A DNA stretch of 59,712 bases, counting the filler, from Dugesia japonica (Eukaryota): NCBI GenBank assembly GCA_001938525.1. It is 6 parts of 6 records of this genome, joined end to end, with 100 filler letters (N's around TTAATTAATTAA, not from the genome) between each part and the next. Parts side by side here need not be neighbours in the genome. Positions count along the whole stretch, not along the records: positions 43,478 to 59,712 come from MQRL01612553.1; 5 more parts are not named here. One strand, given 5' to 3'. Shown one piece after another: positions 20,039-59,712 of this stretch. Positions within the stretch are counted from its first letter, which is position 1, and every line of letters begins with the position of its first letter. The notes beneath the pieces were generated by a model. It saw only the letters and a program-made list of their open reading frames with translations, searched no databases and was not told where the DNA came from. The position numbers and the translations under genes are program-made.

Positions 20039-20340
20039 AAAGCGACTTTCACAAAAAGAGATTATAAATTTTTATAATAATTTAGAAGGTAAAGAAAAAA
20101 TTACTTAAAAATTTAAACGTGTGAAAGTCCCAACAACATGCCCAGGAATAATTAGAGCAACAGCTAAAAAAATATTTATAAAAAATGGAGACTGTTTTAC
20201 ACAAAATGATGAAAAATTATAATTTTAAAAAAAATTCAATAAAATATTTTTGTAAGCTTAATTCATTTAATGAAAAAACAATAAAAACATAGATAATTAA
20301 ATTTAACATTCCCTATAATAAAAGAACAACAAAAAATTTA

Positions 20341-20565
20341 ATGGAAAGAGATTTAAATGGAAGATTTATTTCATTAGAAGATAAACTTGAAAAAAAATTG
20401 CATGGTAAAAGTAATGCTAATGGTAGGGCCAACCGTAATAGTGATGCTAATAGTGATGGTAATAGTGATGGTAATAATGATGGTAAATGTAATGGTAAAG
20501 GCAACAGTAATGGTAATTGTAAAAGAAAAAGACCGAGTCATGTAATGAATTTTTATAACAGTTAA
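20341..20565 (+). CDS. Small N/G/D-rich protein with RDxxGRF motif
   Basis: MERDLNGRF followed by 12-bp aatagtgatg(c/g)t repeats. Confidence 0.35.
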   Translation: MERDLNGRFISLEDKLEKKLHGKSNANGRANRNSDANSDGNSDGNNDGKCNGKGNSNGNCKRKRPSHVMNFYNS

Positions 20566-20709
20566 AAAAATTACTATAGAAATTGGAAGCAAAAATAAAT
20601 CTCGATAATATTATTATTTTTACTCATGAATTATTAAAAAATGATATTTTAAAAATTTCNNNNNNNNNNNNNNNNNNNNNNNNNNNNNNNNNNNNNNNNN
20701 NNNNNNNNN

Positions 20710-21855
20710 CATCTGGTTCAATAAATAATATGATGGGTGGAGGAGATATATTTTTTCAATCTTTACAATCCACCAATCCCTTAAATATTTGTAATGCAAT
20801 GTTATACTTTAAAATAGAAATAGAAAATGAAGCCGATAAAACAGCAGTCCTAGAAAATAATTTTTTTCTATCTTTATTTAAAACAATGAGATTAAGACTT
20901 GGATGATCCTGGTACAATATCAACAATGTTAAATTTTATTTCAACAAGTTATATTCATAGACAAATTTATGGAGAATTATCAGGATGAATTCTAAATGAA
21001 GACCGAAGAAAACAATTATATACAAGTAAAGGTTTTGAAAGTTATTTTCCATTGAGAATTTTATTTGGATTCATACAAAATTTTAACCGAGTTCTTTACA
21101 ATACAATGATTGAATTTTATTGCAATTAACAATTAGAAAATAAACTTTTATTTGAAGGAGAAGGCTCACCAAAAATAAAATTGCTAACATTAGAATTACA
21201 CATTACAGAATGTAGATTAACACCAAAAATGGAATTAATGCTTTAAGAAAGAATTTCAACAGACAAATCAATTAAAGTTGGATTTTTAAATCGAATAACA
21301 GGAAAAATGTCATTAGATTCTGGAAATTATTCTTCTTATAAAATAAGCAATCTTTCATATAAACCAAGAAATGTTTTTATAGTGATAAAAGATGAAAATA
21401 TTTCTTTTGCAAATAATAATAATTTATTTATTCAAAAGAAAACTAAAACCACAAAATTCGATGCAAAAGATGCAACAAAAAAAATTTATTTAAAAACTAT
21501 GCAAATTCGGTTAAATAATAATTACTATTCAATTAATGAATGTAAATTTTATATGACAAAGAATGAAATGATTTAACCTTATTTTAATTATATAAAATGT
21601 TGTCAAGACATTTTTACAGAACTACAATTATCTGTTCAAGAATTAGGTGAACTATATTCAATTTTCTGTTTTGATGTCACAGCTCAAGATGATAGATTAA
21701 ATATTAATAATGTTGATGTTACACTTCACTTAACAAAAGATCCAGATTTTACAGGAAATCTTTACTGGTGCATTCTTGAAGAAAAACATTGAAATGAAAC
21801 TTGCTAATAATAAAATTGCAATGGTTGAAAATGTGAGAGGTGTTGAATTTTTAAA
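20710..21855 (+). pseudogene. Polinton/adintovirus major capsid (hexon-like) protein, second type
   Basis: LENNFFLSLFKTMRL...PGTISTM...FPLRILFGF...KPRNVFI...IRLNNNYY...LYSIFCFDVTAQ, with stops and frameshifts. Confidence 0.75.
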
Positions 21856-21932
21856 TAAATGAAATGACCAAGTCAACAAAATTTACATGTGAAAAATGTA
21901 ATAGAACCCTTTAAAAAAATAAAGCTAGGCAT

Positions 21933-22354
21933 ATGAAACTTTGTAAAGGTGGCGGTGATCTTCAAAAATCAACTTTTGTTTTAAAACCAATTACTTGGGA
22001 AAAATATCCAGGCGAGCGACATTTATTCGGTCATAATTATACCGGTCCAGGAACTAGATTAGANNNNNNNNNNNNNNNNNNNNNNNNNNNNNNNNNNNNN
22101 NNNNNNNNNNNNNAGATATTAGACTCGATGAAAATAATAATCCATTACCAGGAGAAGAACCAGTTAATCGAATTGATGCAGCAGCACGGAAACACAACCT
22201 TGCTTATAATTCAGAAGATCTTAAAGATCGACATGTTGCAGATTTACATTTAATTCATGATATTAATTATATTGAAAATCCCACATTAGCAGAAAGATTT
22301 CAAGGGACTCTTGTAAAACTTGTAATAAAGGGACAATTAATGATAGGCCAATAG
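21933..22354 (+). CDS. Parvovirus-VP1u-type phospholipase A2 (PLA2X)
   Basis: GHNYTGPGT...PVNRIDAAARKHNLAY...RHVAD across a gap. Confidence 0.85.
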
Positions 22355-22363
22355 TCAGAATAA

Positions 22364-23128
22364 AGCCAGGAAGCAAACGAGCTTCATCATGAATGTAGAA
22401 AACCGAGAGAATTCTTAAAAGTAACAGTAAGTGAACCAGACGAAACATGGTCTGCAGATTTAACATTTCATAGAAAACGAGTAATACTAACAGTTATCGA
22501 TCTTTATTCAAGATTTGCTATTGTAGAACTTTGTAATAATAAAACCGGTTCGGTAGTTATTGAAGCATTTGAAAAAATTCTAAATGAAAATATTCGAGCA
22601 CCAAATAATTTATGGGTTGATAAGGGAAAAGAATTTTACAAAAAAACATTTACCACCTGGTGTGAAGAAAATAATATTAACCGGTATTCTACTTATAATC
22701 AAGGAAAGGCAGTTGTCATTGAAAGATTTAACAGAACACTTAAAAACAAACTCTTTAAACATTTTACTACTGTTGGAAATCAACAAATCACAGATGAGGT
22801 CTTACAAGAAATTGTAGATGATTACAACAACACAATTCATTCTTCAATTGGAACAACTCCAGCAGAAGCATACAAAACTAGTATAATAAAACAAGAAGTT
22901 CAAGAAGAAAAATATAAAAAACCAAATTTTAAAATAGGAGATCGAGTTAGAACATTTCTAATTAAAAAAACATTTGCAAAAGCATATAGATTTAAATGGT
23001 CTGTAAAAATTTATACAGTGACAAAAATTTATTTAACAATTCCACCAACTTATCAAATTACCAATTCTGACGGTGTAAAAGTTCTTGGAAGACTTTATGA
23101 GAATGAGTTACAAAAAACTTTTTTATGA
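22364..23128 (+). pseudogene. Polinton integrase, open frame lacking its start codon
   Basis: ELH...WSADL...VIDLYSRF...LWVDKGKEFY...IERFNRTLK...YNNTIHSSIGTTP...FKIGDRVR...YENELQ; 254 uninterrupted codons absent from the ORF track. Confidence 0.9.
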
Positions 23129-23136
23129 AAAAAGGA

Positions 23137-23882
23137 TGAGTAATTTAGTTTGGAAGAAAGACAAAATAATTTTTAATAATAAACTTTTCCGAAATAATTT
23201 TTGATTGTTGATAATTCGGTCTTCTGGTTGTGGAAAAAATGTTCTCTTGACACAAATGTTACTTACACCCGGTTTTCTTGATTATGACATTCTTATTTTT
23301 TACTCAACTACAATTAATCAATTTGAAGTACAATTATTATATAATGGATTTTTAAATGGTTTAACAAAACAAGAAATTTTGTTAATGTTTGAGAAGCAAG
23401 CGATATTTCCAAATTCCTTTGACACACCAACAGAAGTTTTAGATTTTTTTATTAAAAAAAATGAGTAATAAAAAGATCCCAAACAATAAAAATAATTCTA
23501 AGTAATAAATCAAGTGATATTACGAGAATTACAAAAGAATAAAAAGAATCTTGTAATTTTTGATGATGTTGTAAATGAAAAGCAAGAAATTCAAGAAAGT
23601 TATTTCACTCGAGGTCGTCATTCAAATTGTATTGTAATTTACATTTCACAAACATATTTTCACCTTGATAAAAATTCAATAAGAAATAACGCAAATTGTT
23701 TTATATTTTTTAGACTAAATAAAAAAGATTGTGACAGTGTTTATAGTGATTTATTTTCAAATGTATTTTCTGATAAAGATGAATATGATTATGAAGTAAA
23801 TTTTCATTGGAAAGAACCCTATACGTATTTTTATTTAAATCAATTAACAAATGAAATGACAACCGATCTTTTTGCTAAATAA
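23137..23882 (+). pseudogene. A32/FtsK-like genome packaging ATPase
   Basis: Degenerate Walker A (RSSGCGKN), Walker B LVIFDD, TRGRH, ISQTYF, IRNNAN. Confidence 0.9.
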
Positions 23883-23883
23883 A

Positions 23884-24297
23884 ATGACGAGTATAACAGA
23901 AGATGAATTAAAAAAATTATTAAATTCAAATCTTAGCAGATCGATTAAAATTGATAGTAAAAATTATTGGATAGGTAAAAAAGCAAAAGAAGAAATTAAA
24001 AAACATCAACAAAAAAAAGGAGGTTTTATTTTTCCTTTATTAGCTGCAATACCTGCAATAATTGGTGGTATTGGCGCAACTGTGGGTGCTGCAAGTGGAA
24101 TTGCATCCACCGTTGCAAATTCGCAAGACGCATATAAAAAGAAACTTGAAATTGAAAAGTTGAATAGAGAAAAAGAAGACCGAGAATATGAAATAGAAAA
24201 TATAAACGAACAACAGGGTGAGGCCATTTATAAATATTTAAAAAATCAAAATTTAAAACCATCGAAAGAATTAAAAAAGATGGGGGAATATATTTAA
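23884..24297 (+). CDS. Adenovirus pX-like membrane-active/core protein
   Basis: KKGG/FIFPLLAAIPAIIGGIGATVGAASGIASTV. Confidence 0.7.
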   Translation: MTSITEDELKKLLNSNLSRSIKIDSKNYWIGKKAKEEIKKHQQKKGGFIFPLLAAIPAIIGGIGATVGAASGIASTVANSQDAYKKKLEIEKLNREKEDREYEIENINEQQGEAIYKYLKNQNLKPSKELKKMGEYI

Positions 24298-24336
24298 GAC
24301 CTTATAGCAATGGAATATATTTAAAACCTTTTTAAA

Positions 24337-25191
24337 ATGGTGAGAGAAGCGATTCCAAAAATTTATGCTAGTTATATTATATTAGAAAGTAGAATTAAAG
24401 AATTAAAAGAAATAATTGCAAAGGAAGAAAAATATATAATGAATATTTCTCTAGTAAAATTCTTCAATCTAAAAACCTTCTTTCTTCTCTTGCTTTTCAA
24501 CAATAATACTTGATTTCAGCATTACAACCAACTACTTCACCTCTACAACCAGATCCAAAACTAGAAATCGATAAATTATTTGAAAATAAAAATCCACTTA
24601 CTCCAAATATTGAAAACCTAATATTAATTTACCCCCAACAATGACTCCAGAATTTTTAAATGAAAACATTTTAGAAAAAACATATTTAATAATAAAAATT
24701 AATGTTAGAAAAATATATTTAGTTAAAGAAAATGAAATACCATATTTTTATATACTTCCAGATACTTTTGTTCCTTATTCAGATGGAGTAATGAATTTAA
24801 TTCTTGGAAGTATAAAAGAAACCAATGATATAAAAATAGAAGATGTAAATATTTATTTGAATGGATTAAAGATTACACGCTTATAGTAGTAATTATTATA
24901 AAATGTTGAAAAATAAAATCCAACCAAAAACCGAATCAAAAACTCCAGAAAAAAGAAAGAAAAAATGATACAACACAACCAATATTTCATCCATTAAAAC
25001 AACAAGAAGGACAGGTAACACAAGGCATTGGAAATCCAATAGATTTATTTGAAAAATTATTAGTTTTATTTTCAGCTAAAACAGCTGGTCATGAAAATAC
25101 GGGTTCAGAGATAAAATCAGTCTGTGTAAAATTAAGAGCAAGAAAATTAATTTCAAATGAGAAATATAAAAAATATCAAAAAATATTTTAA
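24337..25191 (+). pseudogene. Conserved Polinton protein with C-terminal NPxxLxxxLxxLxxAxxAG(H/N) motif
   Basis: GNPIDLFEKLLVLFSAKTAGHEN...EIKSVCVKL. Confidence 0.55.
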
Positions 25192-25195
25192 ATAA

Positions 25196-25848
25196 ATGTC
25201 TCATCAATTTTTAATTACTGGTAAAGGTCCAAAATTAGAAGTTAATTTAAAACACCCATTAGAGTTGAAAGATGAATAAGAAATTGGTTTAATTTGCTTT
25301 TCCGTTTATAATATTATTTTTAATGTGGAAAAGGAAGATGTTAATTTTACATTCGATGGAATAGAAGAAAAAATTCATCATGGTGCTTATGAAGTTGATA
25401 AAATTTCAGAGAAAATAAAAGCCCTAGGAATAGAGATAACTTTAGATTCTTCAACTGGTAAGTTTTTACTTATTATTCCTGAAAAGAAGAATTTAAAATT
25501 TAATGAAAAATCTTTCTTTTGTAAACTTTTTGGTTTTAAACCCAAAGAGTATACCCCAAGAAAATATTATTCAAATGAAAAAATTAACATTTCAGATATA
25601 AATATGATTAATATTACTTGTAATATAGTTAAAGGAAATTATGTAAATAACAAACCAACTAATTTATTATATTTTTCCAGCAAACACTGTAAGCTTTGGA
25701 TATAAAATTATTGAAAGACCATCACCACCTATTTACTCAAGAATATCTTCTAGTTATATGGTTTAAGATTTGAAGTTGTAGATGAAAATTTAAAACCTAT
25801 TGATTTTAATAATGAAACAATGTAATTATTAGTTCATTTAAGAAAATG
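25196..25848 (+). pseudogene. Polinton minor capsid (penton) protein
   Basis: PLEL...IGL...GAYEV...INITCNIVKGNYVNN...GYKIIERP...VDENLKPIDF...VHLRK. Confidence 0.8.
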
Positions 25849-26159
25849 TCCGACGATAAACCAAAAGTCTTAGATTTTCTAAAAACATTTGGAATTACTN
25901 NNNNNNNNNNNNNNNNNNNNNNNNNNNNNNNNNNNNNNNNNNNTTAATTAATTAANNNNNNNNNNNNNNNNNNNNNNNNNNNNNNNNNNNNNNNNNNNNA
26001 AAAGTAGAACTTACTAAAAAATTACAAAGCCAAAATTATACAGATTTAACTTCCTTTATTAAAGAGATTATTGATACAATAAAAATTTATTTTGCTTTTG
26101 CTAGAAGAATATGCTTCAATTTATTGGGTAAAACCAAATACAATAAAGATCCTTACCAA

Positions 26160-27731: not shown

Positions 27732-28887
27732 ATGATGAAAAACTGTTTAATTTGTAAATATGAGTCTAATGACTTATTATCACATTGTAAAACTGAATGG
27801 CACACATACAATTTGAGACGTGGAACTTCTGGCTTGAATTCTTTATCATATGAAGAATTTAAGGTCAAACAAGCGGATTTAATTTTGAAAAACACAGTTA
27901 ATATTCCAGTTGGTTTTGCAATGTTTATTTCTTATTTCATAATATATTTCTTTAATTTAGAAAGAATACTATTGCTGTAAAAAAGTTTTTAAATGTGTAA
28001 ATACTTATGAGAATCATTTAAAGTCCAAAAAACATATTGAACAATCAAAAATAATAAACGATTCGAAGCAAAGTAATGAAATAGAAGAAATTCAGGAAAT
28101 TGTTGAAAATGAAATAATGGAAGACGATCAAAGTCAGTTAGAAGAACATATAGAAGAACCCCTAACAGTTTTAGATTGCTTATTTTGCAATTTATCTTTT
28201 AAAACTATAGAAAAAAATTTAAATCATATGTACCAGAATCATAATTTTAATTTACCTTTTCCTCAATGTGTTACAGATTTAGAAGGTCTTATGGAGTATT
28301 TGGTGTGTTTAATAGACGAATACCATGTTTGCTTGCAATGTAACAAACAATTCGATGAACGCAGAAGTGTTAGGAGTCACATGGACCACATGAATCATAT
28401 GAGACTTTATTTCCACCTCGAATCAAATGGAGATGATTTGTGCGATTTCTACTCGAATTTGCCTTCACCAGTTGTCAATTTAAATGCGTTATCTGTGAGT
28501 TTTGTTTTGGTTTTTATCTGTCTGTCAAATAAATTCGTTCGTAAATCTCTGCAAACAAAATATTAATTTGATATTTGCTAGGATAACTTGGAGATTGAAG
28601 CAGTTCTGCCGAATGGCAAGAAGGTCGGAAACAGAAGCATGAACGTTTATTTCAAGCAAAACCTTACTGGATTATTGTCTAATCCCAACAAATTATCGAT
28701 TACCAGTGGTCCGGATAAAGCAAGAATGAGTCTGATCGCATCAGGAAGATATAGCCAACTGGTGACGGCGTCCAAGATCACTCCAAAGGAAAAGAAATAC
28801 AAAACATTGGAAGCCAGATATGTTCAGTTGAGAAGTAGCAGATTTAGCAACTTTCAGCAGCATTTCCGAGCTCAGATTTTGATGTAG
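27732..28887 (+). CDS. ZNF622: ZNF622/Rei1 cytoplasmic 60S maturation factor, 3 exons (27732-27908, 27961-28494, 28582-28887), 338 aa
   Basis: HCKTEWHTYNLRR, YENHLKSKKH, CLFC...HMYQNHNF, CLQC...VRSHM, LPNGKKVGNRS, C-terminal HFRAQ; GT-AG phase-0 introns of 52 and 87 nt keep the frame. Confidence 0.92.
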
Positions 28888-30600: not shown

Positions 30601-31569
30601 GTTTAATTATTTTTAGTTTTAAAATAGTTTTCAGAAACCGTTGCCATGCACATTTTTGTTGCTATAGGAGCAGAGTCTTACCATACTACTCATAACTGAA
30701 AACTAAATAGGAATATAACTTTACTTTGGTTCTCAGAAAAAGCAGTGGCGCACTGAGCCACTTTGAAATTGGCATTCAAATTTCTAAACCAATATTTATT
30801 GTATGTTGATAAAATTAGTACCATTAGACTCGGAATAAAAAGCTACTTATACATTGCCCATAGAAATTATAGTGAAAAATTCTTTGTTGAGAAAATAATA
30901 TAAAATTAATAATAAATTATAATTTCTAAAATATTTTCAACTCAGAATCTAAAAATCTATATCAGGCCTGTCAAACCTTTTTTTTTAATGATTGACTTTA
31001 AATTTAACTCAACCTCAAGATCTACTCATATAAAGATTTAGATCTTTGNTTAGTTTAGTTCCATTTTTAAATAAAAATTTAACAAAAAATTAATTTAATA
31101 ATTAATTAATTAATAAAATTGTTGGGGTGAAAAGGAAATAAGGCCAAAAAGCCACATCAGCAAAGAAGAACGGCAGGACCATTATATTTACTAATAATGA
31201 AATGAAAAAGGTAAAACAGGAAAGTAACCCTTAGAAAAGAATAAAATAAAATTGAAGATAGATACGAAAAACCAGGGGACATGAAACTAACATACATCAA
31301 TTGGGACATAAAAGGAATTACAAATCAATATATCAGGAGGAAATAAAATTATTAAATAAAATATTTAATTATGAAAAAAATATCAATTAATTAAAGATAG
31401 AAAATAAATAAAATTAAACCAGAAANNNNNNNNNNNNNNNNNNNNNNNNNNNNNNNNNNNNNNNNNNNNNNNNNNNNNNNNNNNNNNNNNNNNNNNNNNN
31501 NNNNNNNNNNNNNNNNNNNNNNNNNNNNNNNNNNNNNNNNNNNNNNNNNNNNNNNNNNNNNNNNGCCGG

Positions 31570-32033
31570 ACCAATAGGATGCCTAAAAAGAAACATAAAA
31601 CAAAGACACAATTATCATGTGCCATTCTAAAAATAACTACCGATCAGAACCCCAGAATTCTTAGAAGATTAGCACCAGATCCAATAAAATTCAAATAATT
31701 TAATTTTAAAAATAACCAACTAACAGGAATACGGTCGGGATGCAACTAAAGTCATATATAAGCCGCAACAAACTTGGGTGAAATACAACAAAAAAATTCT
31801 AAAATATTGTCTATCAAGGACCTCATAATAATCTGGAAAACTCACTCATAACGTGCCCAACTCTAGTCAAATTATCTCACAAATCGTTTCAACTAACAGA
31901 AAGGAAAACCTTAGTTCAACTAAATCCGGATAGAAATTCAGTAATCTATTCGTGAAAATATTGATTCAGGCAGAAGAAGAAATTGTACGAATATCATCCC
32001 GTTGCAGAAACTTGAAAAATATTTAAAGTAAAA
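31570..32033 (+). promoter_or_regulatory. Cassette promoter and leader exon
   Basis: CCAAT boxes, GTCGGGATGCA (31734), TATATAA (31755), CCGTTGCAGAA then donor GT at 32028; all have positional equivalents in copies 2 and 3. Confidence 0.6.
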
Positions 32034-33432: not shown

Positions 33433-33618
33433 ATGCCGGCCAAACTGCGCCATACCTTACAGTGGATCAGACGCCAGCGATGGGCCACTAGATTGAAACA
33501 GTTAATAGCCCATCTATTGACTCATGGCAAAATAGAACACCCTGACGAAACCAATCTCCAATGTTTCGCCGAGATGTTCACCCTAGGGAAACAAGTTGAC
33601 TTAGACGAAGAGCGATAA
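33433..33618 (+). CDS. Cassette ORF A, 61-aa orphan (EHPDET motif)
   Basis: Intact ORF; homologs at 35501-35673 and 57693-57875; acceptor ttttag 3 nt before the ATG. Confidence 0.8.
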   Translation: MPAKLRHTLQWIRRQRWATRLKQLIAHLLTHGKIEHPDETNLQCFAEMFTLGKQVDLDEER

Positions 33619-33784
33619 ATCGAATGGCATAGTGTTTACTCTATGTAGAACGAATATTACCCCTTTTACTTCAATTTTAGACTAGTTGTGTGTGCGTATC
33701 ATTCTTTGTTTTTGTTACGTTTTTTTACATAAACCTATTTAAATTGTCGTTATGGTAATAATTATTATAAAATTTTCAATAGGA

Positions 33785-34144
33785 ATGGACTCGGTTTGGG
33801 AACAAATAATAGACCGCAGAACTCGCCGGGTGGTTTTTAGACACCACCATAACCCGTATAATAGAGATGCCGGTATTCTGGTGGATAAGACCAATTTACC
33901 TCCGATAAAGGCGACAGTGGCTCGCATTCAGAACTTCGGCGAAAGGGTACGCTTTCAACAATGGAACAGACCGGTACGCACCGGTACGCACCCATGCCAC
34001 GGCCTTTAATTATCAACCTCCAGCCCCCCTCTAGTAGTGCAGGCTTTTATATCCAATTTACTCTGGGGTGTGAGAGAACCAACGGGGGTTAATTATTTCG
34101 AAAACACCAATCCTAATATCGACAATAATACTGATCCACAATAA
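33785..34144 (+). pseudogene. Cassette ORF B, ~118-aa orphan, frameshifted by a 10-nt duplication
   Basis: MDSVWEQIIDRRTRR...AGILVD..NLPP...VQAFISNLLWGVR; acceptor caatag 2 nt before the ATG. Confidence 0.8.
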
Positions 34145-34336
34145 ACCCTTTCTTTGTGTACTTAGAACTAAAAATAAATAAATGTTTCATCTTCTGTTAA
34201 TCCACTTTATATCCACATACATTTGTTTGAAGAAAATTCTAATATATATTAATTCAAGGATGTATTATTAAGTACTGTATGTCTCATTGTTCATAATTAT
34301 AATATTTCAGTGCATTCCTCCTTGAATAAATTGCAG

Positions 34337-34670
34337 GCCCCGAATAAAAAACTACGAGAAACCAGTGAGGACCTCGATCTCACTTGGGATTTATATCGGC
34401 TGGCAAAACGTCGACGGGAGGCCGAAATAGACGTCGCCAACAGTAAGATATCCCGCTACAAGAAGAAATGCAGCTGCTTTCAAAAAGGAGACCGAGGCCT
34501 CTCACTTGCAGAAGCGAACCTAGAAGAAACAGGTTGAGTCCTTTGCGGAAGTTATCTGGTCCAGCCATGACTGAGAAAATAAACTGGTTAACGATGTTTT
34601 ACTTATCCGGGAAAGAATACCTCTCGAACTACTGATGATCAAAAAGAGCACCCAAAACCCTCGGACTTAA
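34337..34670 (+). pseudogene. Cassette ORF C, basic coiled-coil orphan
   Basis: ttgcag|APNKKLRETSEDLDLTWDLYRLAKRR...ERIPL. Confidence 0.75.
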
Positions 34671-35076
34671 CCGTTTCAGCTTTTATAAATAAATCTATTA
34701 TTCAATCATTTTCTTTTGATAAATTTTTTTCTTTTATCCTAAAGTTTTACTTAAGCTTAGCTGTTTAATTGCTTTATTATTAATTTAATTTCCTTAAGTG
34801 TCTCGCATCATTTTCCTAATAGTCTCCGCCGGTGCCATCGCATCATGCACCGTCTGTTACTGGAACGACACTTAAAGTGTAAAACAGACCGGGTTNNNNN
34901 NNNNNNNNNNNNNNNNNNNNNNNNNNNNNNNNNNNNNNNTTAATTAATTAANNNNNNNNNNNNNNNNNNNNNNNNNNNNNNNNNNNNNNNNNNNNTTATT
35001 ACTTTTTTATTGATTTGCCACAAAAAAATTCCTTGAATCAATCTGTCTATTTAATCTACCTCACAACAGCAAAAAT

Positions 35077-37870
35077 CAGTTCTGTGTTTTCGGAGTTTTC
35101 AGGATTTTCAGACCCCCTAACACTCCATAGATAATCGTTGATGGCCTCTCGTAACTCGGCAGGAGCAAGTTGAGTCGCGTAAGAAAATGGTGTCACCAAA
35201 TTCCGTGTTGGGCCGTTTCAAGCGTTCTAACTCTCTCGGTTTTGGTGTTGACGGGAGGTAAATTCGATCGTTCTAATAACACCCTATTATAGGGATTAAC
35301 ATATCGCCTAAATATCATGCGACGAGTTTGACGATAACATACCAATTCTCATTTATATTCAACTAGAAAAATGAATAAAAATAAAAGATTGAAAATATAA
35401 TTAGACATTTATTTAACAAAGATTAACTAAAAGTAAGAAATTGATTTGGAATTTATTTTATGACACATTTAAAGATTACATGGGATTGAAGTTACGAATC
35501 TCAGTCTAAATCCACTTCGACCCGGAGAAGTAACATCTCCAGAAAACAGTTCAGATCTGTTTCATCTGGGTGCTCCATCAGCTCCGTAAAAAGAAGATGA
35601 GCAATTAATTGTTTTTAACGGGCTGAATTTCTTTGCGAATGAGGCAAAGAGTGCCTCTTAATACTGCGGGCATGATTCTAAAGGTAGTACTATACCGATT
35701 GTTTAGCGTTCAACGCGATTAATATATCCACTGAGGTTGGTATTTGTTCTTACTACCTGGAGTTTCCTGAAAAGATAACAAAAAATTTAGAGAAGTGCTC
35801 TACAGTCAATTGAAAGTCCTAATCATAGTTATTTTATAATGACGACAACGACACTAACATTATTAAAACAAACAGGAGGGTCACATTTATAATGATAACC
35901 TTATTGTTTGATAATAATATTGAAAAAAGATAACAAGGGTAGTCCCCACCAAGCTCATAATCACAACACCAACAATTATGACAAGAGTAAATGCGAAACG
36001 TAATCACAATAATAATAATAATAATAATAAAATCAATAACAATAATTGATAATAATAGTAATAAATATATTGGGGACCATAATAGTAATTGAGTTGATAG
36101 GAAATATACTACTGGAATATATGTTATTAATAACTCCTAAGATGACTATGTTAATGTTGATATTAAAACTCGTGTCACTGACAAAAATCATCATAATAAC
36201 AATGACAGTAATAATGTCAACAGCGATGATAATAAAATTAATCATGCATATCTTAATACCAGAGTTGAACCAATTACCGTACTGGGTAACTCATAACTTC
36301 TTACTAAATTTTAACCTGAATGATAATACCGATCTCTTTGTTAATAATAATAAATTACTGGCAAGAGTTTGAATAATACTCGATATAGTAATACTAAATT
36401 GCTTGATGAGGATAATATGAATGATATCGCAATTGTACTCGTGTAATATGCTCTAATCTTATTAATCAATAACTAGGTGGAAATAGATACAGCTAAACTC
36501 GGACACATTATCTGCTTTCAGTAACGATTTTAATATAGTTAGCAAAATCTCTAACTGTTATGAGAGCAACTTATTTTTAGTAATCCGATGATGATGTTGA
36601 ATGGCAGAAAATCACATAATCATTAGTATGAATCGACAAACAGCTTATTTTTTAACAGCACGTTTTATGTTTGGGAAAAGTGGCAAACAATATTTTAGCG
36701 CATATGCAGCGATTCTATCACCGATGACTTAGTCATTGGTTTCTATGTTGTATGATTACCTCATCTATTTACCGATATCGATCGTCGTGAACTTCTCTCA
36801 CAAACACAGTTAAATCAGCAACTCTGCAGAAAATAGATGTCTAGCAGTTGTCACTGAATTTTTTAATCGCAACTCCGGTTATGTAATGAAAATAATTATG
36901 GTCGATTATTCTCTGGAATTAATATTCATAAATTTTATCCTCATAAAAGAATTGTTATCAATAATCATTTATTCAATTAAACATAGTTCATAATAACATT
37001 AACAAAATTAAACATTTACTTACTGGTTTAATTACTGATTCTGCCAGGGAGTTGACAAAGAAATATTATCGATCCCACCAAAATGAGTAAGTGATTTTCG
37101 ATTGAATTAATTGAAAGATGTTTCACCTTCTTTGGTTCTTAAAAATGTTAGATAAAATTTTCCGTGTTAACGTAATCTGTCTTAATAAAAAAATAGATTT
37201 TAAAGGGTAATTTTAACCAAAATCACGGGGATTTTATGCCTTTTCTATTACACCCCGACTTAGTCTTCATTGGCTCTATTTTTATTTTCGTTTTAACATT
37301 TCTGATTGGCACTAGCTCTAACATTTTCAGACTTTCTACAATTTTCTAACATTTCGGTAGTGCCTAATTTTAGAGCACCTGCTGACTTCTTATTTCTTGT
37401 TATCAGTTTTTTTTTGGCCTCTCATTGACTCAATCTTTAAACGCTCTTTTCAATAGAGAGAACACTTTCTTGTTTCGGAAATCAATTCCTCCATGTTAAT
37501 CCCTTTCTGAATTTTCTTTCCCGGGCCTCCTCCGGTTTTCCTGAGCCAAGATATTCCCTTTTAACCGATTTTCTCGTAATTAATTTTCTTTTTCTGCCAA
37601 AATTAATTAATTTATTTCAATAATTTTCCACGTAATTATGAAAACTTTTTTCTTGTTTCTTTTATTATTAATTATGATCACTTAATTATAATTATTTCAT
37701 CTCGTCTTTATTGTGCCAATATACCATTTCTTCTCAATTTTTTAGCTATTCTGATCTTCTTTTCGTTATTTATTTCAAAATATTAATGGACTGAAAATTA
37801 TTGTAGGTTTAATACTTCTTATTACTCCATTTTTGGGCTTTCAATTGCTTTTTCTTTGGTGCACCCCAAC
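35077..37870 (-). mobile_element. Orphan A-B-C cassette, copy 2 (truncated at the join before ORF C)
   Basis: CCAAT x2, GTCGGGGTGTA, CATAAAA, CCCTGGCAGAA...|GTAAGT at 37023; ORF A 35673-35501 (KQLIAHLL...EHPDETDLNCFLEM); ORF B 35362-35077 (RQTRRMIFRRYVNPYNR...NLPP...AINDYLWSVR). Confidence 0.75.
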
Positions 37871-40800
37871 AATAATAATGATATTAACAACATAACCACA
37901 ATCATGCAATAAAACAAATAAAGCAAAACACTGAATAAAAAATTCATGCAAAATTAAAATCAATCATAAATTTGACAAAAGCTTGAGTTAATGATCAATA
38001 TTTCACATTTATGGCTGACCAGATCCCAACAAGTAAATAAAATCATTTAAAATATAAATAGGTAAATAAAATCATTTCAAATATCACAATAATTATAAGC
38101 AATGCACAAATTCTCACTACTTTCCGAGATCATCCACTCATTTCTCCTAAAAATTCATTTTATCTTGAGTTCTTATTAATTTCTGGACTTCATATTCGCT
38201 TCATATTTCATTTTTATCATGTTAGTAATTTTATTGAAATTCAGTTCTGTCGTCTAGTGGTGGTTGAACCTTCTCTGAACACATTAAGAAAAAGAAAGCA
38301 TATTAATTAAATTTTATTTTTTCAACACTAAATGGTGTTAACTACTTTATACAAATCAATTTCTACCTTTATTGGTACATTTGTTTGCTCCTCGTCTTCT
38401 TTTCTTTGTTTCTTGTGGTCATTTCCTCTTTCATTTGTACAAAATTGAAAAATATCCGATAATTATAAAGTTATCATTATTCTTTAACTTTTTGAATATT
38501 TCATTTAAATTAATTTTTTTGCATGGAAATTCATGTAGTTTTTCATATTTCTGTATTTAATTTAAAAATAAGTTTCCGATTGTTTCTTTGTTCAACTCCT
38601 ATTAGTATTATTACCAAAACATGCATTACAACTTTGTTTTAAAATCTCATTAAATATTTTTCATTTGGACAAAAAAATAAATTCTGAAGTTGACTGAAAA
38701 TCTTTTGTTTTCGATGGCAAATGACAAATATTCTTTATTTATGTAGGCTCCATGTAATTATTCCATACATGATGCTTTAAGATTTCGTGATTCCTATTTA
38801 GAAGTGTTTATTTTTCAATCTTGTTTCTATGTAAATCATTTCTGTCGCATTATCTAATTATAAAACTATTTTTCAAAGTTCATAAAGTTAAATCTTGAAA
38901 TTTGTATTGCAAAATTTTTTAGAAGTTCTTAAGAAAATAGAAAAACAATTTTTGTAATCTATTTTCATTTTGTCATTTTATTTGTTGTTTTCTTCTACAA
39001 ATTTTTGTTCAAAGCAAAAATTAACGTATGAAATTTGAGTTATTTATATTTAAATATATTTTGTAATTATACTCAGTAACTGAATATTTGATTATTAAGG
39101 TCATCATCCCGATTAACCAACCAACTAAGGACACTCACAATATAAAGATGTTATTCCAGGGGATCATCAAATTGAACTGATATCCACTAATAATTACACC
39201 ACTACTAAAAAATCGATAGTGTTGGTCACAAACCACTTTTAATGCAAATATTGTCGATTATAACAAATGCGCTATTCTTTACTGATACAATCATCTCACG
39301 ACTTAAAAATTAATTACTTTTATCTAAATAATTTTGGAATGGAAAGGACTTTCTCAGACAGGTTTATTATAGAGAATCCTTACTGAGCCCCTAAAATTCC
39401 TTTTGGGTTTCGAGGCTATTAATGTTATTTTCTTAAATCTTTTTTTCTTCTCAATCGTTCTTCTTAACATTATTCTTTTTGAGATGTCTTTGGGATTTCG
39501 CAAGGGCAAATCAACGATATTTTACGTGAGTTCTAATGAGCTATTTTAAAATGAAATCCAATTAACGTTTACTTATAACTATCGTGATATCTCTTTCCTT
39601 ATATTCTACTATGTTTATTCATATTCTTATAAATAAGATATATAGTGTCCTTTTTTATTATTAACTAAAGAATAATTTTTCAAAGTTTTATTGAAATTCA
39701 ATGTATCAATTACAAGCGTTATTAATTTTTTTCCCTGGGTCTGTTACTAGAGAAGTATTAGACCTCTTTGAGAATCTAAAATCGGGCAGTAAGTAATGGA
39801 TTTATTTACGTTTCTATACTAATTCTTACTCGTATGTACACGAGTAACATGAAAAATATAAATATTTACAAACAATTATGAAAAATTTAAAATCGGATTA
39901 AAATCATATTAAATCGGATTTAATTTATTTTATGAAATTAATAAAAAGTATTAGAATTTATTAGTTTAGTTTATATTACTGTTTAAATCTTTATAAAATG
40001 CTAGCTTATTTCTCCAATTAATGAACTTGCTATTTTTATATAAATGTAAATTAGAATTCAGATATCAAACGATACTGAAGAAGGCTCAACCACCAAGCAT
40101 CAATGACTCGTCAAAAATCTTTCTCGTATCATCCCATGTTAACATTTTCAACTGTTATCAATTCATGCCCATCATTTTACCATAATAGTCCTTCTCAACA
40201 TTAAACAGTTTCTTTAATTAAATTAATTAAATGTTTCAAAAAAAAAAATAGGTAAAAATAATAATGGCAAACTTACATCATTTTCATGAGAGTTTTTCTG
40301 GGTCAACATTCGGTACAGTTGTTGATCTAAATGAAAATTTAACTATCAATCACCAAAAATAACAAAACAAATTTTCTTAACTAATTTTTGGATATATTAA
40401 TAGGTATAAAAACAATCCAACAGCTTAAAAAATAAATTGAAATTATTATCAAGAACAATTTTAATTCAAATAATAATTTACAATATTACTCTTAATTAAC
40501 AGACCATCGATTATTCATCATCATCGACGGAGCTGGATCTTCTCCATAATATTTCTCATTTAGCACCAGTGGAGATCTCATTGCCATTTAGATCCACTCT
40601 GTTTTTCTTAACCTGAATCCGGTGTTTCGTTCCATTCCTGTTACAATTAATGATAGTTTGCGAGAGTCCGACTCCTTCCTGATGATGAATGGTCCTCCTG
40701 TTTTCATAAATCCGATGGTATCCTTACTCATTAAATATCTAAATGTACCTCAACCAGTGTCAAATATTAATAATATATTTAATTCTAAATTTAACCTATA

Positions 40801-41387: not shown

Positions 41388-41910
41388 ATAGAAGCAAATT
41401 ACGAATAAGTATTGTATTTCAAGAGCAACTCACAAAAGGATATTAGGTTTCAGACAGCGAAATTGTATGAAGAATATTACAGTTTGGAAGACCATTGCAA
41501 ATAAGTATTGTGTTTCAAGTGTAAATGAAAAAGGATATTACGCTTTAGACAGCGAAGTTATACAAAGATTATTACTGTTCAGAAGCAAATTGCGAATAAG
41601 TATTGTATTTCAAGAAGCAATCATAAAAGAATATTACGTTTTAGACAGCAAAATTATACAAAGATTGTTATAGTTCAGAAGCAAATTGCGAATAAGTATT
41701 GTATTTCCAGAGTAAATCACATAGGGTTATTATATTTCATATAGCAAAATTATACAAAGATCATTACAGATTAAGAGTAAATTACAAGAAAATTGCAAAT
41801 AAGTTATTAGATCTCAAGTGCGAATTACAAAAGGTTATTACATCCCATAAGCATATTACATAATTACAACTGAATGATTGTATCTCATAAGCAAATTACT
41901 AATAGGTAAT
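41388..41910 (+). repeat. ~96-bp tandem array (about 5 copies)
   Basis: agaagcaaattgcgaataagtattgtatttc-type units at about 41390, 41486, 41581, 41677 and 41773. Confidence 0.85.
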
Positions 41911-45015: not shown

Positions 45016-45439
45016 ACGATTTTAATCAGGCATTTGTTCTTCATGACTGACGTTTTCTTCTTCTATTATTTCTTCATTAAGTTTTCCTTTCTCGATGTTT
45101 TTAATTTATTTTGATATATCTTAATTTTTCGAAAACATTTCCCACTTGAGCAGCGTCCTCAAAGAAAATTTCAAAGTTTAACATTTTTTTTAAAAGTGAA
45201 TTTACTTTAAAAAACATGACCTATTTATATAATTTAAATTAACAATCATATCATTTAAAATGAAATATATCCAATCATATTAATAAAAATAAATAATGAC
45301 CAATCATAAAAACAACATCTAATCATATCCATTAAAACAGGTAAGGTCCAAAAAAACTACCAAATATCAAAACTACCAAATAACAAACTTAATTTTCTTT
45401 TACAATAAACAAGTGTGGTCCTAAAAAGAATCAGTTTTA

Positions 45440-46620
45440 AATTTTTAAAAGAAATTAGAAAAGGGGATAAAATATTTAAATGAAATTAAAAAAAGGGATA
45501 AAATTTTTAAAAAAGGAGATAAAATATTTTAGAGAAAATAAAATTGGGGAAAAAATTTTTAAAAGAAATTAAAAACAGAGATTAATTTTTTTAAAGAATT
45601 TAAAAAAAGGGATAAAATTTTTGAAAAGGGGATAAATTTTTTAAAAAGAGGATAAATTTTTTTAGAATTAAAATTGTGGATAAATTTTAAAATAAATTAA
45701 AAGTGGGGATAAATTAAATTAAATTAATTAATTAAATAATTAAATTAATATATTAAATAAATAAATTAAATAATTAAATTAATTGATTAAATAAATTAAA
45801 AGTGTGGATAACTTTTTAAAAATAAATTAAAAGTGGTGTTTAATTTTTCCTGTGTGTTTAGTTGGGAATTTATTCGGTGAGGTGGAATGAGGTCAATTTT
45901 TGATTTNTTCAGGTGAATTTGGTCAGAAATTTTCTCGGTGACGTCGAATGTAGTCAATTTTTGACTGGTTTAGGTGAAATTGGTCAAATTTTTCCTCAGT
46001 TTTGGTCAGTTTGGGTAATATTTGGTCAAGATTTGGTCCAGTATTTAATCGGGAATAGTAACTTGGTTTATTTTTTGTCAATATTGGTCAAATATTTCCT
46101 CGGGATATCTCGGATTGGGTAATTTTTGGATGATTTAGTTGAAATTGGTTGAAAGTTTTCTCAATGAGGTAGAAATATGTCAATATTTAAATAATTTAGA
46201 GTAAATTTTAGTTGATTTGGTCAAATAATTCCTCGGGATGGCTCGGATTGGGTAATTTTTGGGTGACTTGGTCTAATTTTTCCTAAAGATTGGTCAGTTG
46301 GGTTAATCTTTGGACAATCTTAGTCAATTATTTACCCACATTAGTCAGTTTTGGAAGATTTGATCGAATATTTCCTCTGGATTGGTAATTTTTGGATGAT
46401 TTGGTCTAATATTTCTTCCAGGTTGATCACTTTAAGTAATTTTTGTGTGGTTTAGGTAAAAATAGTTGAAAATTTCTCGGTGAAAGAGAATCTGATCAAA
46501 CTTGGTTTGTTTTAGGTTAATTTGGTCAAATATATCCCCGGGAATTATTAATTTGGGTAATTTTTGGGTGATTTGGTTAATTATTTCCTCGGGAATGGAC
46601 AGTTTGGGTGGAATTTTAAG
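45440..46620. repeat. A-rich ggggataaaattttt array followed by a degenerate ~40-bp tttggtcaaatatttcctcggg array
   Basis: Visible periodic units; related to 1413-1780 in reverse. Confidence 0.7.
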
Positions 46621-47039
46621 GAAATTCATGATAAAAGTCAAATTTGTTTAAATTTTGAAGTTTTTAAAAATTTTTTATCTGAGTGTTTTATCGGAATCTT
46701 GGCAAACCGTTCATGTTGTTTAAATAATATGAAAATTTTAAATTTTTTAAATGAAATTTTTATGTGAGTCTGGGTGAACAGTCTAAATATTTCGAAAAAA
46801 TATGTTCTATATCTCAGATTCCAAAGATTTTTATACCAAACTGTTGAGATTTTTTTAAAGATTACTAAAGAGTGTCATAAATATTGTCAGTATTTGAACC
46901 ATTTTTCTCAATGTATTCTTTTCCTTGAATGATGCTAGAATGCCTCGTAAGTGGTATTCATTTTGCAATAATCTTGCACTTGTATTGTACTTATACTGTA
47001 CATGTAATGGACTCAGTATATTGTATATTCATCTTGCAT

Positions 47040-47370
47040 ACTTCTATGCAACATTATAAAATGTTTTAATACTTCTATACAATTTCATAAAATAATTTGT
47101 GATTACTTTGCAATTTATATAATTATTATCGACTACCTTGAAATTTCAGATACTTTTTATCACCTACCATGCAATTTAATAAAACAATTTGTGACTTATA
47201 TGCAATTTCATAAAATATTTAGAGACTTTTAGTCATTTTTAGATTTATTTTCCTATTATTTTACATATGATTTTGAAACTATTATCAACTTCGATGAAAT
47301 TGCAGATTATTTTTATTGACTACTATGCAATTTCATAAAATGTTTTTCGACTAGTATAAAATTTCAGATT
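47040..47370. repeat. Degenerate ~30-bp tandem repeat
   Basis: Recurrent atgcaatttcataaaat. Confidence 0.6.
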
Positions 47371-53999: not shown

Positions 54000-55200
54000 G
54001 ACAATTATTTGTAAGAAATGGACACGAATCATTACGCCATATAGGATTTTGAAAAATGGCAGCTCATAAAAGAGAAAATTATGATATAGAAGGTCTAGAA
54101 AAAATAGTAAAAGAACTTACTCAAAGTTCTAAAAATTGTCAATTAAGAAAAATACAAAAACTCAAACAAAAGAAAGTATTATTAGTATTCTAGCTGATGA
54201 TATCTTTGAAATCATTCATATTGATATTTGTGCTTCTTTAAAGAAAACATGACATGGAAAACAATACCTTTTAGCTATAATTGATAAATTCAGTAGATTT
54301 ATATCCCTCAATGCAGTTTCACATCAAGATGAAAATACCACTGTTAAAATATTAAAAAATAATTGAATTTTGAAATAAAGTTCACTGAGAATAATACATA
54401 CAGATCGTGGAAAATCATTTGAATCAAATCTATTCCAACAATTAGCTAAGGAATTTAATTGGGAAATCCAATACTCTAGTCAATATCATTATAGAAGTAA
54501 TGGAGTAATTGAAAGACAATTTCAAACTATAAGAGATACAATTCATATTAGTTTACAGGATAAGAAAAAGCAGGACTGGGGCTGAAGTTTTACAAGAAAT
54601 ATAATTTATGTTGAACACCACAATTCAAAGAACGACGAATGTACCTCCAGCTGAAATAGTTTTTGGGGAAAATTTACACAAAGAATGGTTTGTTAGGAAT
54701 GAAAAAAACAATGTGAATGAAAGAAATCTATAGTGTAAAAGAATAATAAACAATTGAAATAACTATGAAAATTTCAAAAATTTAGAAAAGAATAATACAG
54801 TTAGAAAATTTATTATTGATGACGAAGTTTGAATTAAAAGAGAAAGTCCACATATAAATAAAAACAGATATGAAGAACCAGTAATAATTATAGAGAAAAT
54901 ACATGATAGAAGTTTTAAATCAGAACTTACTAATGTTAAAAAAATAATAAGAAATATTGCATGGTTAAAACACTTAAAAAGAGGGGAATGTGATATATGA
55001 CTAATAATATAATATTTCAAATTGACCTTTATATAAGTAATTCGACATATGTATGTGATCATAGGTGAATGCGTGATTGACTATTTGAATGTGTGTATGA
55101 ATTTAGTATCAGACATTATTGCATAAATGATTCCTCAAAAGCTATATATATTTGTTACAGCGTCATTTTGTTTTAGAATATATATGTTATGCTTAACAAT
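54000..55200 (+). mobile_element. Gypsy integrase, PPT and 3' LTR start
   Basis: HESLRHIG...IHIDI...IIDKFSRF...HTDRGKSFES...SNGVIER; PPT AAAAAGAGGGGAA then TGTGA at 54989. Confidence 0.85.
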
Positions 55201-56295: not shown

Positions 56296-56379
56296 ACAAT
56301 CATGTTAAATCAGAAAAAATTCGCAACTGCTGTATATATATACAGCAGTTGCGAATTTTTTCTGATTTAACTTGATTGT
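56296..56379. repeat. 84-bp near-perfect palindrome centred on (TA)n
   Basis: 42-bp arms with one mismatch and no spacer. Confidence 0.9.
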
Positions 56380-56699: not shown

Positions 56700-59600
56700 T
56701 TTTGTTGGGGTCCCACCTGAGTCGAGTGACACCAAAAAATTGGCCGGGGAAAAACGGCCCTCAGGGGAACCCTTTCAAGAATTTACCCTACCGTCCCCGT
56801 GGTAGGTTTTCGGTTTATGGTGGTTGACCTTACTCTTAATGGAAGGTACGCACTGATAAACCTTTATTTTTTTACCCTCTCTTGATTCTGGGTGGCGTCC
56901 ATTTCCGTTTTAAAAGTCAGGCATTTTCGCTTATAGCGTTTCACCTTAGCCTCGGCCGCGGTGGTCTCCGCTTCCCATCGCCTCTTCGCTAGTCTATAGA
57001 GATCCCACGTGAGGTCAATGTCCTCACTGGTTTCCCGCAACTTTTTACGTGGGGCCTGTGACTTGTTCAAAGTAATATAATAATTACTATACTCACTACA
57101 AGGTTTGATAATACTGTTAATAATAAATATAATTAAGTAGTAAGAATCACAACTAATCATTAATTAAAAAACCTAAGCATTTATTACTATAAACAAAAAT
57201 TTAAGGAGTGTTAGTATCACTGTCAATATTAGGGGGTGCATTTTCAAAATCTGCCACCCCAGTGAGTTACCTTACTCCCCAGAGAAGATTATTGATGAAG
57301 GCTTGTACCGCGGGTGTGGGGAGAGGAGTGGGAGGTTGGTAATGGAATGGGGTCGCTAGCACACGATCCGGACCCGTCCACGTCTGGTATCACTGCCGTT
57401 CCCCAAAGGCCTCAATACGTTTAACCACTGCTTGAACTGGAGGTAAGTTTGACCAGTCAACTAGGATACCGGCATGCTGATTATGCGAGTTGTAATATCG
57501 ACGTAGAGTCAATCGCCGGGTTCTCCGATCGACAACGCGTACCCATATGGAATCCATACCTACGAATAAAATAGAACTAGTAACATTTTAACAATACTGT
57601 ATTAAGATATAAGTTATGAATAATGGTAGTAAATATAACATTTTATTTCAATACACTTAACCACACGGACATCCGTATTTTACAGAAAGTAATTACTCCT
57701 CGTCTAAATCTAACTTTCCACCCCTAGGGAACATCTCAGAAAAACAGCACAAGTCAGTTTCATCTGGATGTTCTATCTGTTCACGGGTTATTATATGGGC
57801 TATTAATTGTTTCATACGAACAGCTCGCCTCTGTCATTCTATCTTTCGCAGAACCCGACGCAAATCGGCGGGCATGAGCTAAATATAAGAAAGGTATATT
57901 TTAACAATAACATTTATGGTTCGATAAACAAAACAAAAAAGAATAGAATCGTCATGGCCTTCCGGAGGCCATAATGGGGAATTTCTACCCTCACCCTCCG
58001 AAGTGGCTGGCGTACATTCGTCTCCGGATATGGGAATTGCTCCATGTGCGAGATTCCGATAAAAATACCACTATCGACGGTATTGATGTTACTCGCCACT
58101 AAAATTTTAATATAGCCGTAGCAGCTGATCCGGGTCATAAGTTTAATGTGAATACTTTTCCAAACATGCGAGAGAAAAGAGCGATACCGAGTTACTACCA
58201 ATTTTATTAATAAAGGTCCTTTCGCAACCCAATATGATGTTAGAATGTTAGTGATTATACGGGACCTTGGTATTTAAAACCATAAACATCGATTACTCCT
58301 ACTCCTGATGGTAACCCATACAATAACAATAATATCCAAAATGTGGATATTACCGATGGTTCGCAATATTAATCTCAATAACGGCATTGGTAATACTAAA
58401 TATAGTCCCAAAAACAATGAAATTGATAACAATAGTATTAATAATAGCTTTAATAATCATAATGATGATCATATTAATAATAATTAAATCATAATATTAT
58501 TGACATGAGTAATAATATGGATAAATGCTTAAATTCATATGACTTAACTTTATCTTAATTTGAAATCCATACGCGTCATTGTCGCTTGGTAACCTCCCGA
58601 CTTAGAAATGAGTGGATTAGAGTATGTTAATTTTTTCATCTATGTCGCATATTATTCAAGTGGGTATGTGTACTGCTGTATCTGTGCATAGGTATTAGCA
58701 ATGAATGAGTGTACCATTATTAGACATTACCAAGTGTATTGGAATTTCTATCCTCTTGTAGTGAGTCACGATTAGCAACACTGGAAATAAAGTAATTATA
58801 ATTTTCAAATNTTTTCTTTTCTTGTTATCATGGAAATTCAATATACAAGCGAGTGTTATCAAGGGAAACCTGCCATCCTTCCCCAAGATTTCATACTACT
58901 ATTACAGGACGGATTTCCATCAGATGACTTTTATTGGAATTATCTCATTGGAAACCTTTATTTCCTTATGGGAATATAACAGAATCTGAACGTGTGGCGC
59001 TGTCTGTGGTGATTGAAAAGAAAAATATTTTGCAACGCAATTACTCAATCATGCAGTGGTTAGTGGAACAATTTTTTTGTTTAGTTTGGCATAGCTCAAA
59101 TAATTATTTTAAATACAATTTTAGTTTTCTCTTCATGATTATTTAATTATTATCAAAGGTTTATCAAATTTAAAACTATATTTTTTGAACATTTTTATTA
59201 TCAAAGTGACAATTAATATAACAACAAATTTTTTACTTTTAATATTAAGGATTTATTCTGCAACGGTGACGCAAATGTGTTTTGAGGATCCAACTATTGG
59301 TTCGATTCCTACATTGGTTTCTCTTTTCTTTTCTGCCGACTGAGTAGTTCTTTTCTAAAATTAGAATGATTTCAGACACTAAAAATTGCCAATGTTTCCG
59401 TCTTACGCTTGAATAAAACAGTAATCTTCCGAACGTTTTCTTTTTTACCAAGGTATATATCCACGTAATTTAAAATGGCGCGATGTAGTAATAATTTTCA
59501 ACAAAATTGTATGGTTCTAGCAGTTGGTTTTGGTTAGTTTTTTTGTTTTTTTCTGCTAAAAACAGGGGTCCTTTTATAGGATTTTCTGATGCAATTCGGC

Positions 59601-59712
59601 ATCATTCTTATTGGGGGGTATTTTTATTTTGAATTAACGAGTTCTTATTGGCGTTGGTGCCACAATTCTAGAATTTTTACAGAGTTTTAGATCTCTGATT
59701 GGTAAGTATTTT
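56700..59712 (-). mobile_element. Orphan A-B-C cassette, copy 3
   Basis: CCAAT x3, GCCGAATTGCA, TATAAAA (59578), CCGTTGCAGAA...|GT 59236; ORF A 57875-57693; ORF B 57557-57201; ORF C from 57055. Confidence 0.8.

Follow-up and report, generated by a model that had tools for sequence, protein, structure and literature searches.

What do three short reading frames that recur together on scaffolds of the planarian Dugesia japonica encode, and what kind of element carries them? The window analysed here, the whole stretch of 59,712 nt (25% GC, with N gaps), consists of six scaffolds joined by a linker, N44-TTAATTAATTAA-N44, at positions 9157, 17573, 25900, 34896, and 43378. Comparison of the window with itself revealed three copies of one cassette of ORFs, A-B-C, located on three scaffolds (Table 1); copies 1 and 2 adjoin only via a linker joint. 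ORF A (60-61 aa) begins with ATG in all three copies and has an aligned TAA end, ORF B is about 118 aa long, and ORF C (about 70 aa) has a conserved start that is not an ATG. A ZNF622/REI1-like gene, a Polinton-like remnant, and retroelement debris also lie in the window.

Table 1. Features of the three cassette copies and of the element around them (window positions, nt).
Feature	Coordinates	Strand	Observation
Cassette copy 1	33433-34537	+	Self-comparison
Cassette copy 2	35673 to scaffold end 34996	-	Self-comparison; cut before C
Cassette copy 3	57875-56864	-	Self-comparison
ORF A, copy 1	33433..33618	+	Intact, 61 aa
ORF B, copy 1	33785..34144	+	Frameshifted mid-ORF
ORF C, copy 1	34322..34537	+	Open; TTTCAG acceptor-like site 11 nt upstream
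Element 5' end, copy 1 (TGTTGGGGT)	31120..31128	+	2313 nt before A ATG, two N gaps between
CCAAT-CCAAC-TATA module, copy 1	31681..31762	+	561 nt from 5' end
ORF A, copy 2	35492..35673	-	Two internal stops
ORF B, copy 2	35050..35363	-	Decayed: deletions, stop, no ATG; same-phase TAG acceptor-like site kept
Element 5' end, copy 2 (TGTTGGGGT)	37863..37871	-	2198 nt before A ATG
CCAAT-CCAAT-CATAAAA module, copy 2	37232..37309	-	562 nt from 5' end
ORF A, copy 3	57693..57875	-	60 codons, one internal stop; TTTAG acceptor-like site 3 nt upstream
A-B spacer, copy 3	57558..57692	.	AT-rich
ORF B, copy 3	57201..57557	-	118 codons, two internal stops; TAG acceptor-like site 2 nt upstream
B-C spacer, copy 3	57071..57200	.	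AT-rich; depth down to 14-345
ORF C, copy 3	56864..57070	-	68 open codons; conserved start without ATG; AATAAA overlaps end at 56868
GC-rich subterminal block, copy 3	56745..56812	.	Common to very many genomic copies; partial RNA reads match
Element 3' end, copy 3 (...ACCCCAACA)	56703..56711	-	161 nt past C stop; no PBS-like TGG after
CCAAT-CCAAT-TATA module, copy 3	59571..59651	-	5' end of copy 3 would be ~500 nt outside window

An earlier note on this DNA had proposed that the ORFs diverge mostly at synonymous positions. The ORF C codons on which it drew are present exactly in the sequence, at 34322-34411 (+) in copy 1 and 57070-56981 (-) in copy 3, and the near-identical start peptide that it described holds up: 27 of the first 30 residues are the same in the two copies, with 24 base differences that fall 6/2/16 at codon positions 1/2/3 and 14 codons changed silently. 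The claim extends to every codon of A, B, and C that aligns between copies 1 and 3 without a stop (220 codons; the frameshifted stretch of copy-1 B and three stop-containing codons were excluded), where differences number 76/42/131 at the three positions; 140 of the 220 residues are identical, and 78 of these 140 are specified by a different codon. Pairwise maximum-likelihood estimation under GY94 gave a dN/dS of 0.068 for this set; a dN/dS of 1 was rejected (2dlnL 137), as was 0.15 (2dlnL 6.9), and values down to 0.01 are compatible with the data, the lower bound staying open because silent sites are saturated. In a slightly different set of 225 codons, pS was 0.83 and pN 0.25. The ratio pN/pS ranged from 0.36 to 2.1 in the five other frames versus 0.25-0.37 in the coding frame and was higher than the coding value in every block, with the antisense mirror frame coming nearest to it. 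Long purifying selection on the cassette ORFs, as proposed, is thus borne out by a dN/dS of about 0.07 between copies 1 and 3.

The spacers between the ORFs had been described as unalignable by eye. When four spacer pairs were compared with shuffles in two alignment modes each, seven of the eight comparisons agreed with this description (about shuffle level, z -1.0 to 2.0), but the B-C spacer reached z 3.1 in global mode, a score attained by 1 of 500 shuffles and accompanied by no local signal. Equal conservation of spacers and ORFs, named beforehand as evidence against selection, was not seen, coding blocks scoring z 9-25. These comparisons firmly indicate that the three small ORFs are real proteins held by strong purifying selection between lineages.

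Single copies, by contrast with the lineages, are in decay. The expected one or two stops or frameshifts per copy describe copy 1 well but understate copies 2 and 3, which have three or more lesions each. Copy 1 retains intact A and C, with B out of frame via a short duplication and a nearby deletion (~33970-34033); copy 2 has two stops in A and several deletions plus one stop in B; and copy 3 has in-frame stops at 57834-57836 in A and at 57390-57392 and 57267-57269 in B. In contigs of run X1 (aligned to copy 3 only, at 80% likeness; 3043 records), 98-99.7% of the summed depth at each copy-3 stop carries another letter (18-25 contigs each). Stop read-through or another genetic code was rejected, the stops being copy-specific. 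Of the 196 variant rows, 40 were listed and 35 of these used; 31 of the 35 lie in ORFs (14 silent, 14 replacement, and 3 at stops), and the same 35 include nine sites where copy 3 departs from at least 95% of the depth: six replacements, three stops, and no silent change. This pattern fits drift in copy 3, with a count that is biased against silent sites: these differ from one family member to another and rarely attain 95%. Together with the three copy-specific stops, it supports, for copy 3, the proposal that decay set in after selection.

Where does the repeated unit begin and end? The window contains the motif TGTTGGGGT exactly three times, against an expectation of 0.23 and with no shuffle out of 100 yielding three: at 31120 (+), 2313 nt before copy-1 A; at 37871 (-), 2198 nt before copy-2 A; and at 56703 (+), where it reads ACCCCAACA on the coding strand, 161 nt after copy-3 C. 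The unit has, as a solo LTR does, TG...CA ends with a short inverted repeat, TGTTGGGGT/ACCCCAACA, pieced together from different copies; the match between the ends is 9 nt only and inverted. At the 5' ends of copies 1 and 2, no inverted counterpart of the GC-rich 3' subterminal block is present; nor was a long inverted repeat found between these 5' ends and the 3' end of copy 3 (ends that belong to diverged copies of different subfamilies) or inside copy 1. A ribozyme (hammerhead or other) in the subterminal block was considered and rejected, with no Rfam match and a folding z of about -0.6 versus shuffles.

A second landmark, a CCAAT..CCAAY..TATA pattern, likewise occurs three times in the window, once per copy and on the coding strand (0 of 100 simulations reach three; the expectation of 0.39 is optimistic because the pattern was defined after inspecting the copies). 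Distance to the end was not used in the definition, and this module, which resembles a Pol II promoter by motif only, is present in all three copies, and its distance from the 5' end is 561 nt in copy 1 and 562 nt in copy 2. AATAAA, the word expected of a poly(A) signal, lies upstream of A by 1301-1334 nt in every copy, and copies 1 and 3 have it again at the end of C or beyond; it is a common word, occurring 9-16 times per copy. The 2.2 kb upstream of A contain weak, roughly collinear DNA anchors and an ATT-type tract in all copies. Comparison between copies revealed no protein-level conservation in this part, and a Pfam search of 18 X-read frames from it found no transposase, integrase, or gag, returning two sub-threshold unrelated matches only; lacking a mobility gene there, the unit is unable to move itself. 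An antisense Asn-rich ORF upstream of A was discarded, as 12 of 12 frame comparisons were at about shuffle level and it corresponds to the ATT-type repeat tract.

Flanking DNA is plain and AT-rich, with no purine tract before copies 1 and 2 and no PBS after copy 3. In copy 1 no 3' end could be recognised up to the scaffold end at 34895, the 360 nt downstream being only faintly like those of copy 3, and both ends of one copy never fall within the window. The cassette is the 3' third of a bounded element with TG...CA ends and an inferred length of roughly 3.5 kb.

Run X1 also speaks to abundance. Depth is 7-15 for contigs that match copy 3 exactly or almost exactly, while summed depth, which is not equal to copy number, amounts to 500-1,500 over B, 650-2,600 over A, and 3,000-6,600 over C, with 14-345 over the spacers and 12-90 upstream of A; over 56700-56858 it rises to 43,000-375,000, and the subterminal block stands at about 70 times the depth of ORF C. 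This contrast means a large family in which the ORFs and the end are better kept than the spacers. RNA runs X9, X10, and X13 yielded 7, 134, and 18 partly matching reads, none of them 99% alike, over the subterminal block (three runs), C (X10 and X13), and A (X10); diverged relatives of the cassette element are transcribed. For copy 3 itself, no expression was seen in the 6-25% of the RNA runs read and no RNA joints were listed, and no RNA dataset with a sequence matching the exact copy was listed.

Such polyA RNA reads from diverged relatives, along with promoter-like motifs and the acceptor-like sites described below, are what a host multigene family with many pseudogenes might produce. The copies nevertheless share TG...CA boundaries and a very high repeat depth, three broken copies occur in 60 kb of unlinked scaffolds, and no protein search returned a named homologue; we regard a host family as highly improbable.

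The proteins themselves are near-orphans. All homologue searches used short queries, with which distant relatives are missed. Pfam gave no match above cut-off for the six cassette frames; none of 108 candidates held for ORF C against longer proteins and none of 138 for the ORF A profile, and the ORF B profile retained 1 of 14, P0003. A HMMER search of copy-1 B against 1.84 billion representatives returned five matches, four of which were rejected as repeat-inflated (multi-copy Ig-domain or tandem-repeat proteins). P0003 (94 aa, from a 512-bp metagenome contig) is 38% identical to B and begins at the same Met; searched against the window, it matches B of all three copies (E 3e-12, 2e-7, and 6e-6), and for this reason we kept it as a homologue. 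The B family evidently exists beyond this assembly. Two further metagenome loci for B proved to be 10-residue chance matches in a GC-rich membrane-protein ORF. Metagenome contigs gave no match for C; A, C, P0003, and the end motif had none in viral contigs; PDB sequences gave none under E 0.29, and the ESM Atlas returned no usable match for copy-1 A or P0003. Both A and C encode short proteins rich in Arg and Lys, for which a helical fold is predicted or expected. ORF A was modelled as a two-helix hairpin at low confidence (pLDDT 65) that found no match in BFVD under E 4.8, and the ORF B model (pLDDT 47) was unusable; a WW-like reading of the start of B, made by eye, had no Pfam support.

An endogenized fragment of a DNA virus or Polinton-like element, with the spacers as short intergenic ones, would suit several observations: the ORFs are small orphans set between AT-rich spacers, a B homologue comes from a short metagenome contig, and another scaffold of the window holds a Polinton-like remnant. 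Against such an insert, no relative turned up in viral contigs or BFVD folds and no link to the Polinton scaffold was found; the copies share the same two boundaries, one promoter, and 2.2 kb of non-coding DNA. For a Polinton or adintovirus in particular, no pPolB, integrase, capsid, or ATPase is linked to the cassette and the ends are not AG...TC. We consider this origin very unlikely. The earlier note had favoured a mobile or viral origin over host paralogues: the mobile part is supported by the TG...CA ends, the module at fixed distance, and the very high depth, but the viral part holds only if an LTR element is counted as viral; no match to a virus was found.

How might the three ORFs be expressed? 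In every copy the ATG of A is preceded, at 2-4 nt, by a YAG in the form of a T-rich TAG, and a same-phase TAG lies upstream of B in all three copies, followed 2 nt later by ATG in two of them; in the window as a whole, 5.3-5.5% of ATGs have such a YAG. Because these YAGs are kept while the spacers otherwise do not align, we infer that the ones before A and B are splice acceptors. For C, a TTTCAG 11 nt upstream in copy 1 is absent in copy 3, and a CAG lies 15 nt inside the ORF in both; ORF C would need an upstream exon for its start. B stops at an aligned TAA in copies 1 and 3. That the ORFs belong to a larger bounded element and follow acceptor-like sites had been left out of the earlier note.

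We wondered whether A, B, and C could instead be exons of one protein, with the spacers as introns of a captured or element-borne gene. The spacers are intron-like in being AT-rich, 130-190 nt long, and closed by YAG before A and B; in copies 2 and 3 a GTAA donor-like word contains the stop of A, copy-2 B has no ATG but keeps the acceptor phase, and C has no ATG. However, the GTAA donor is in phase 2 versus phase 1 for the B acceptor in three of three copies, copy 1 has no GT at this place, and the last 45 nt of A offer no other one-phase GT near the end in all copies; moreover, B has its own aligned TAA in copies 1 and 3, and P0003 starts at the Met of B. This arrangement, which concerns gene structure and is compatible with either of the element types discussed below, seems to us improbable. 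Since the A-B exon join fails on phase, separate mRNAs from one shared leader are likelier.

On balance we read the unit, with belief and doubt in about equal measure, as the solo LTR of a giant Gypsy (Burro/Ogre-like) retrotransposon with spliced accessory ORFs A, B, and C. An LTR is favoured by the TG...CA ends, the promoter-like module near the 5' end, and the absence of mobility genes and of a long inverted repeat in the unit, and the lack of a purine tract before copies 1 and 2 and of a PBS after copy 3 is as for solo LTRs. Internal gag-pol would have been lost by LTR-LTR recombination, leaving the solo LTR; transcription is predicted to start at the CCAAT/TATA module, and the leader would be spliced to separate acceptors, alternative splicing giving A, B, and C as accessory proteins. 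Selection would act only while the lineage replicates, with drift once a copy is stranded, and the products, at a guess, most likely serve the expression of the element itself or its RNA handling. Under this reading, R or U5 would be longer than 2.5 kb. Several observations speak against an LTR: none of the copies is linked to a PBS, PPT, gag, or pol, words such as AATAAA and YAG arise often in AT-rich sequence, ORF B of copy 2 lacks an ATG, and neither an ATG nor an acceptor is conserved for C.

A DNA element filled by a single gene would also account for a promoter close to one end and AATAAA close to the other. In that case the unit would be a non-autonomous DNA transposon of Ginger-like type, ending in TG...CA and equipped with one promoter and a single transcribed cargo in which A, B, and C are exons or separate ORFs, moved in trans by an integrase-type transposase and accompanied by many end-only derivatives, an alternative that we find possible if rather doubtful. 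Terminal inverted repeats of Ginger elements measure tens to hundreds of bp. According to PMC6839031, Ginger1 and Ginger2 have TG...CA termini and a target-site duplication of 4 or 6 bp (Polinton ends are AG...TC), and the unit ends in TG...CA as Ginger elements do. The AATAAA at the end of C is 160 nt from the other end, the ends have their inverted 9-nt match, and the excess depth of the end block, about 70-fold over C, is expected if many end-sharing elements lack the ORFs. Against a Ginger element, the copies display no long inverted repeat, either across copy ends (which come from different subfamilies) or within copy 1, and no DDE integrase-like transposase: no transposase remnant was seen, and the Pfam integrase-like DDE is absent in A, B, C, and the upstream part. 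Saturated silent sites and a dN/dS of about 0.07 would furthermore need long selection on a cargo with no known transposition role.

The solo-LTR reading invites comparison with elements already described in a planarian host whose genome is, according to PMC11410931 and PMC8532177, more than 70% AT with abundant Polintons and Gypsy elements. According to PMC6431247, Burro (GYPSM1), a planarian giant Gypsy, exceeds 30 kb in total, has up to 25 kb of internal sequence, thousands of copies, and accessory ORFs, and Ogre LTRs are 1.9-6.5 kb long. The likeness to Burro lies in LTRs of an implied several kb, thousands of copies, accessory ORFs, and decayed copies with stops and frameshifts; the difference is that Burro's accessory ORFs are placed, in section 7 of that paper, relative to the polyprotein, with none described inside the LTR. 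Made by description, the Burro parallel is a lead only. Plant Ogre/Tat elements have their extra ORFs in the internal region, unlike the three selected ORFs here, which lie within the repeat itself.

Complex retroviruses have accessory genes in or overlapping the LTR, among them MMTV sag, HIV nef, and foamy virus tas/bet. Like the arrangement predicted here, these are small ORFs spliced from the LTR promoter, each behind its own acceptor; unlike it, they lie in or overlap U3 upstream of the promoter, whereas A, B, and C lie downstream of the TATA module (in R or U5). No sequence similarity between them and A, B, and C was found or expected. To our knowledge, a few vertebrate retroviruses are the only elements with conserved protein-coding genes inside an LTR. 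A literature search found no account of selected ORFs inside an invertebrate LTR, although Repbase entries or the primary Burro paper may show them, and searches for the end motif together with LTR gave unrelated titles only, among the matches listed.

Selection between lineages with decay within copies is textbook mobile DNA, and the position of the ORFs is what matters. What appears to be new is a bounded element, of unproven class, with a promoter-like module and three orphan, acceptor-led ORFs. If the solo-LTR reading holds, a large part of the masked "inert" repeat in this genome encodes three unnamed, long-selected protein families, and a role of the ORFs in element replication or host control is directly testable; if the unit is a DNA transposon, it is still a high-copy element with a selected cargo of no known function. 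Tentatively, and with clearly more doubt than belief, we suggest that an invertebrate giant LTR lineage may keep three orphan proteins conserved within its LTR, each encoded downstream of the promoter and behind its own acceptor, and that thousands of solo LTRs may be self-contained accessory-gene units, regulatory cassettes in the manner of complex retroviruses, which outlive the element and some of which the host still transcribes.

Other features of the window deserve brief mention. A near-perfect 69-nt palindrome lies at 56304-56372, 330 nt outside the end of copy 3; its Rfam miRNA matches are all far under gathering scores. Decayed Gypsy-type integrase-like frames occupy 54000-55000 (+), followed, by eye, by a purine tract and TGTGAT at ~54980; judged by eye, this remnant is a different, smaller LTR element than the cassette unit. 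The block at 17673-25899 is a decayed Polinton/adintovirus-like element with an integrase at 22364-23128, in agreement with an rve match at 10058. By motif, we take its frame at 23205-23882 to be a Walker-A ATPase-like one and the short hydrophobic ORF at 23884-24297 to be core-protein-like, and 21933-22354 presumably holds a phospholipase-A2-like motif. An open ORF of 292 aa at 13381-14259 (-), in a slightly GC-richer block, had no match in a Pfam search. The host ZNF622/REI1-like gene at 27732-28887 (+) matches PF12756 (E 2e-22) and PDB entries (E about 1e-14), and by eye has short GT...AG introns ending in TTTAG or CTAG. Tandem arrays of 96 bp and 179 bp also occur, as do 31-bp periodic repeats that scaffolds share (41390-41769, 45439-47370, 1600-1800, and 18034-18426).
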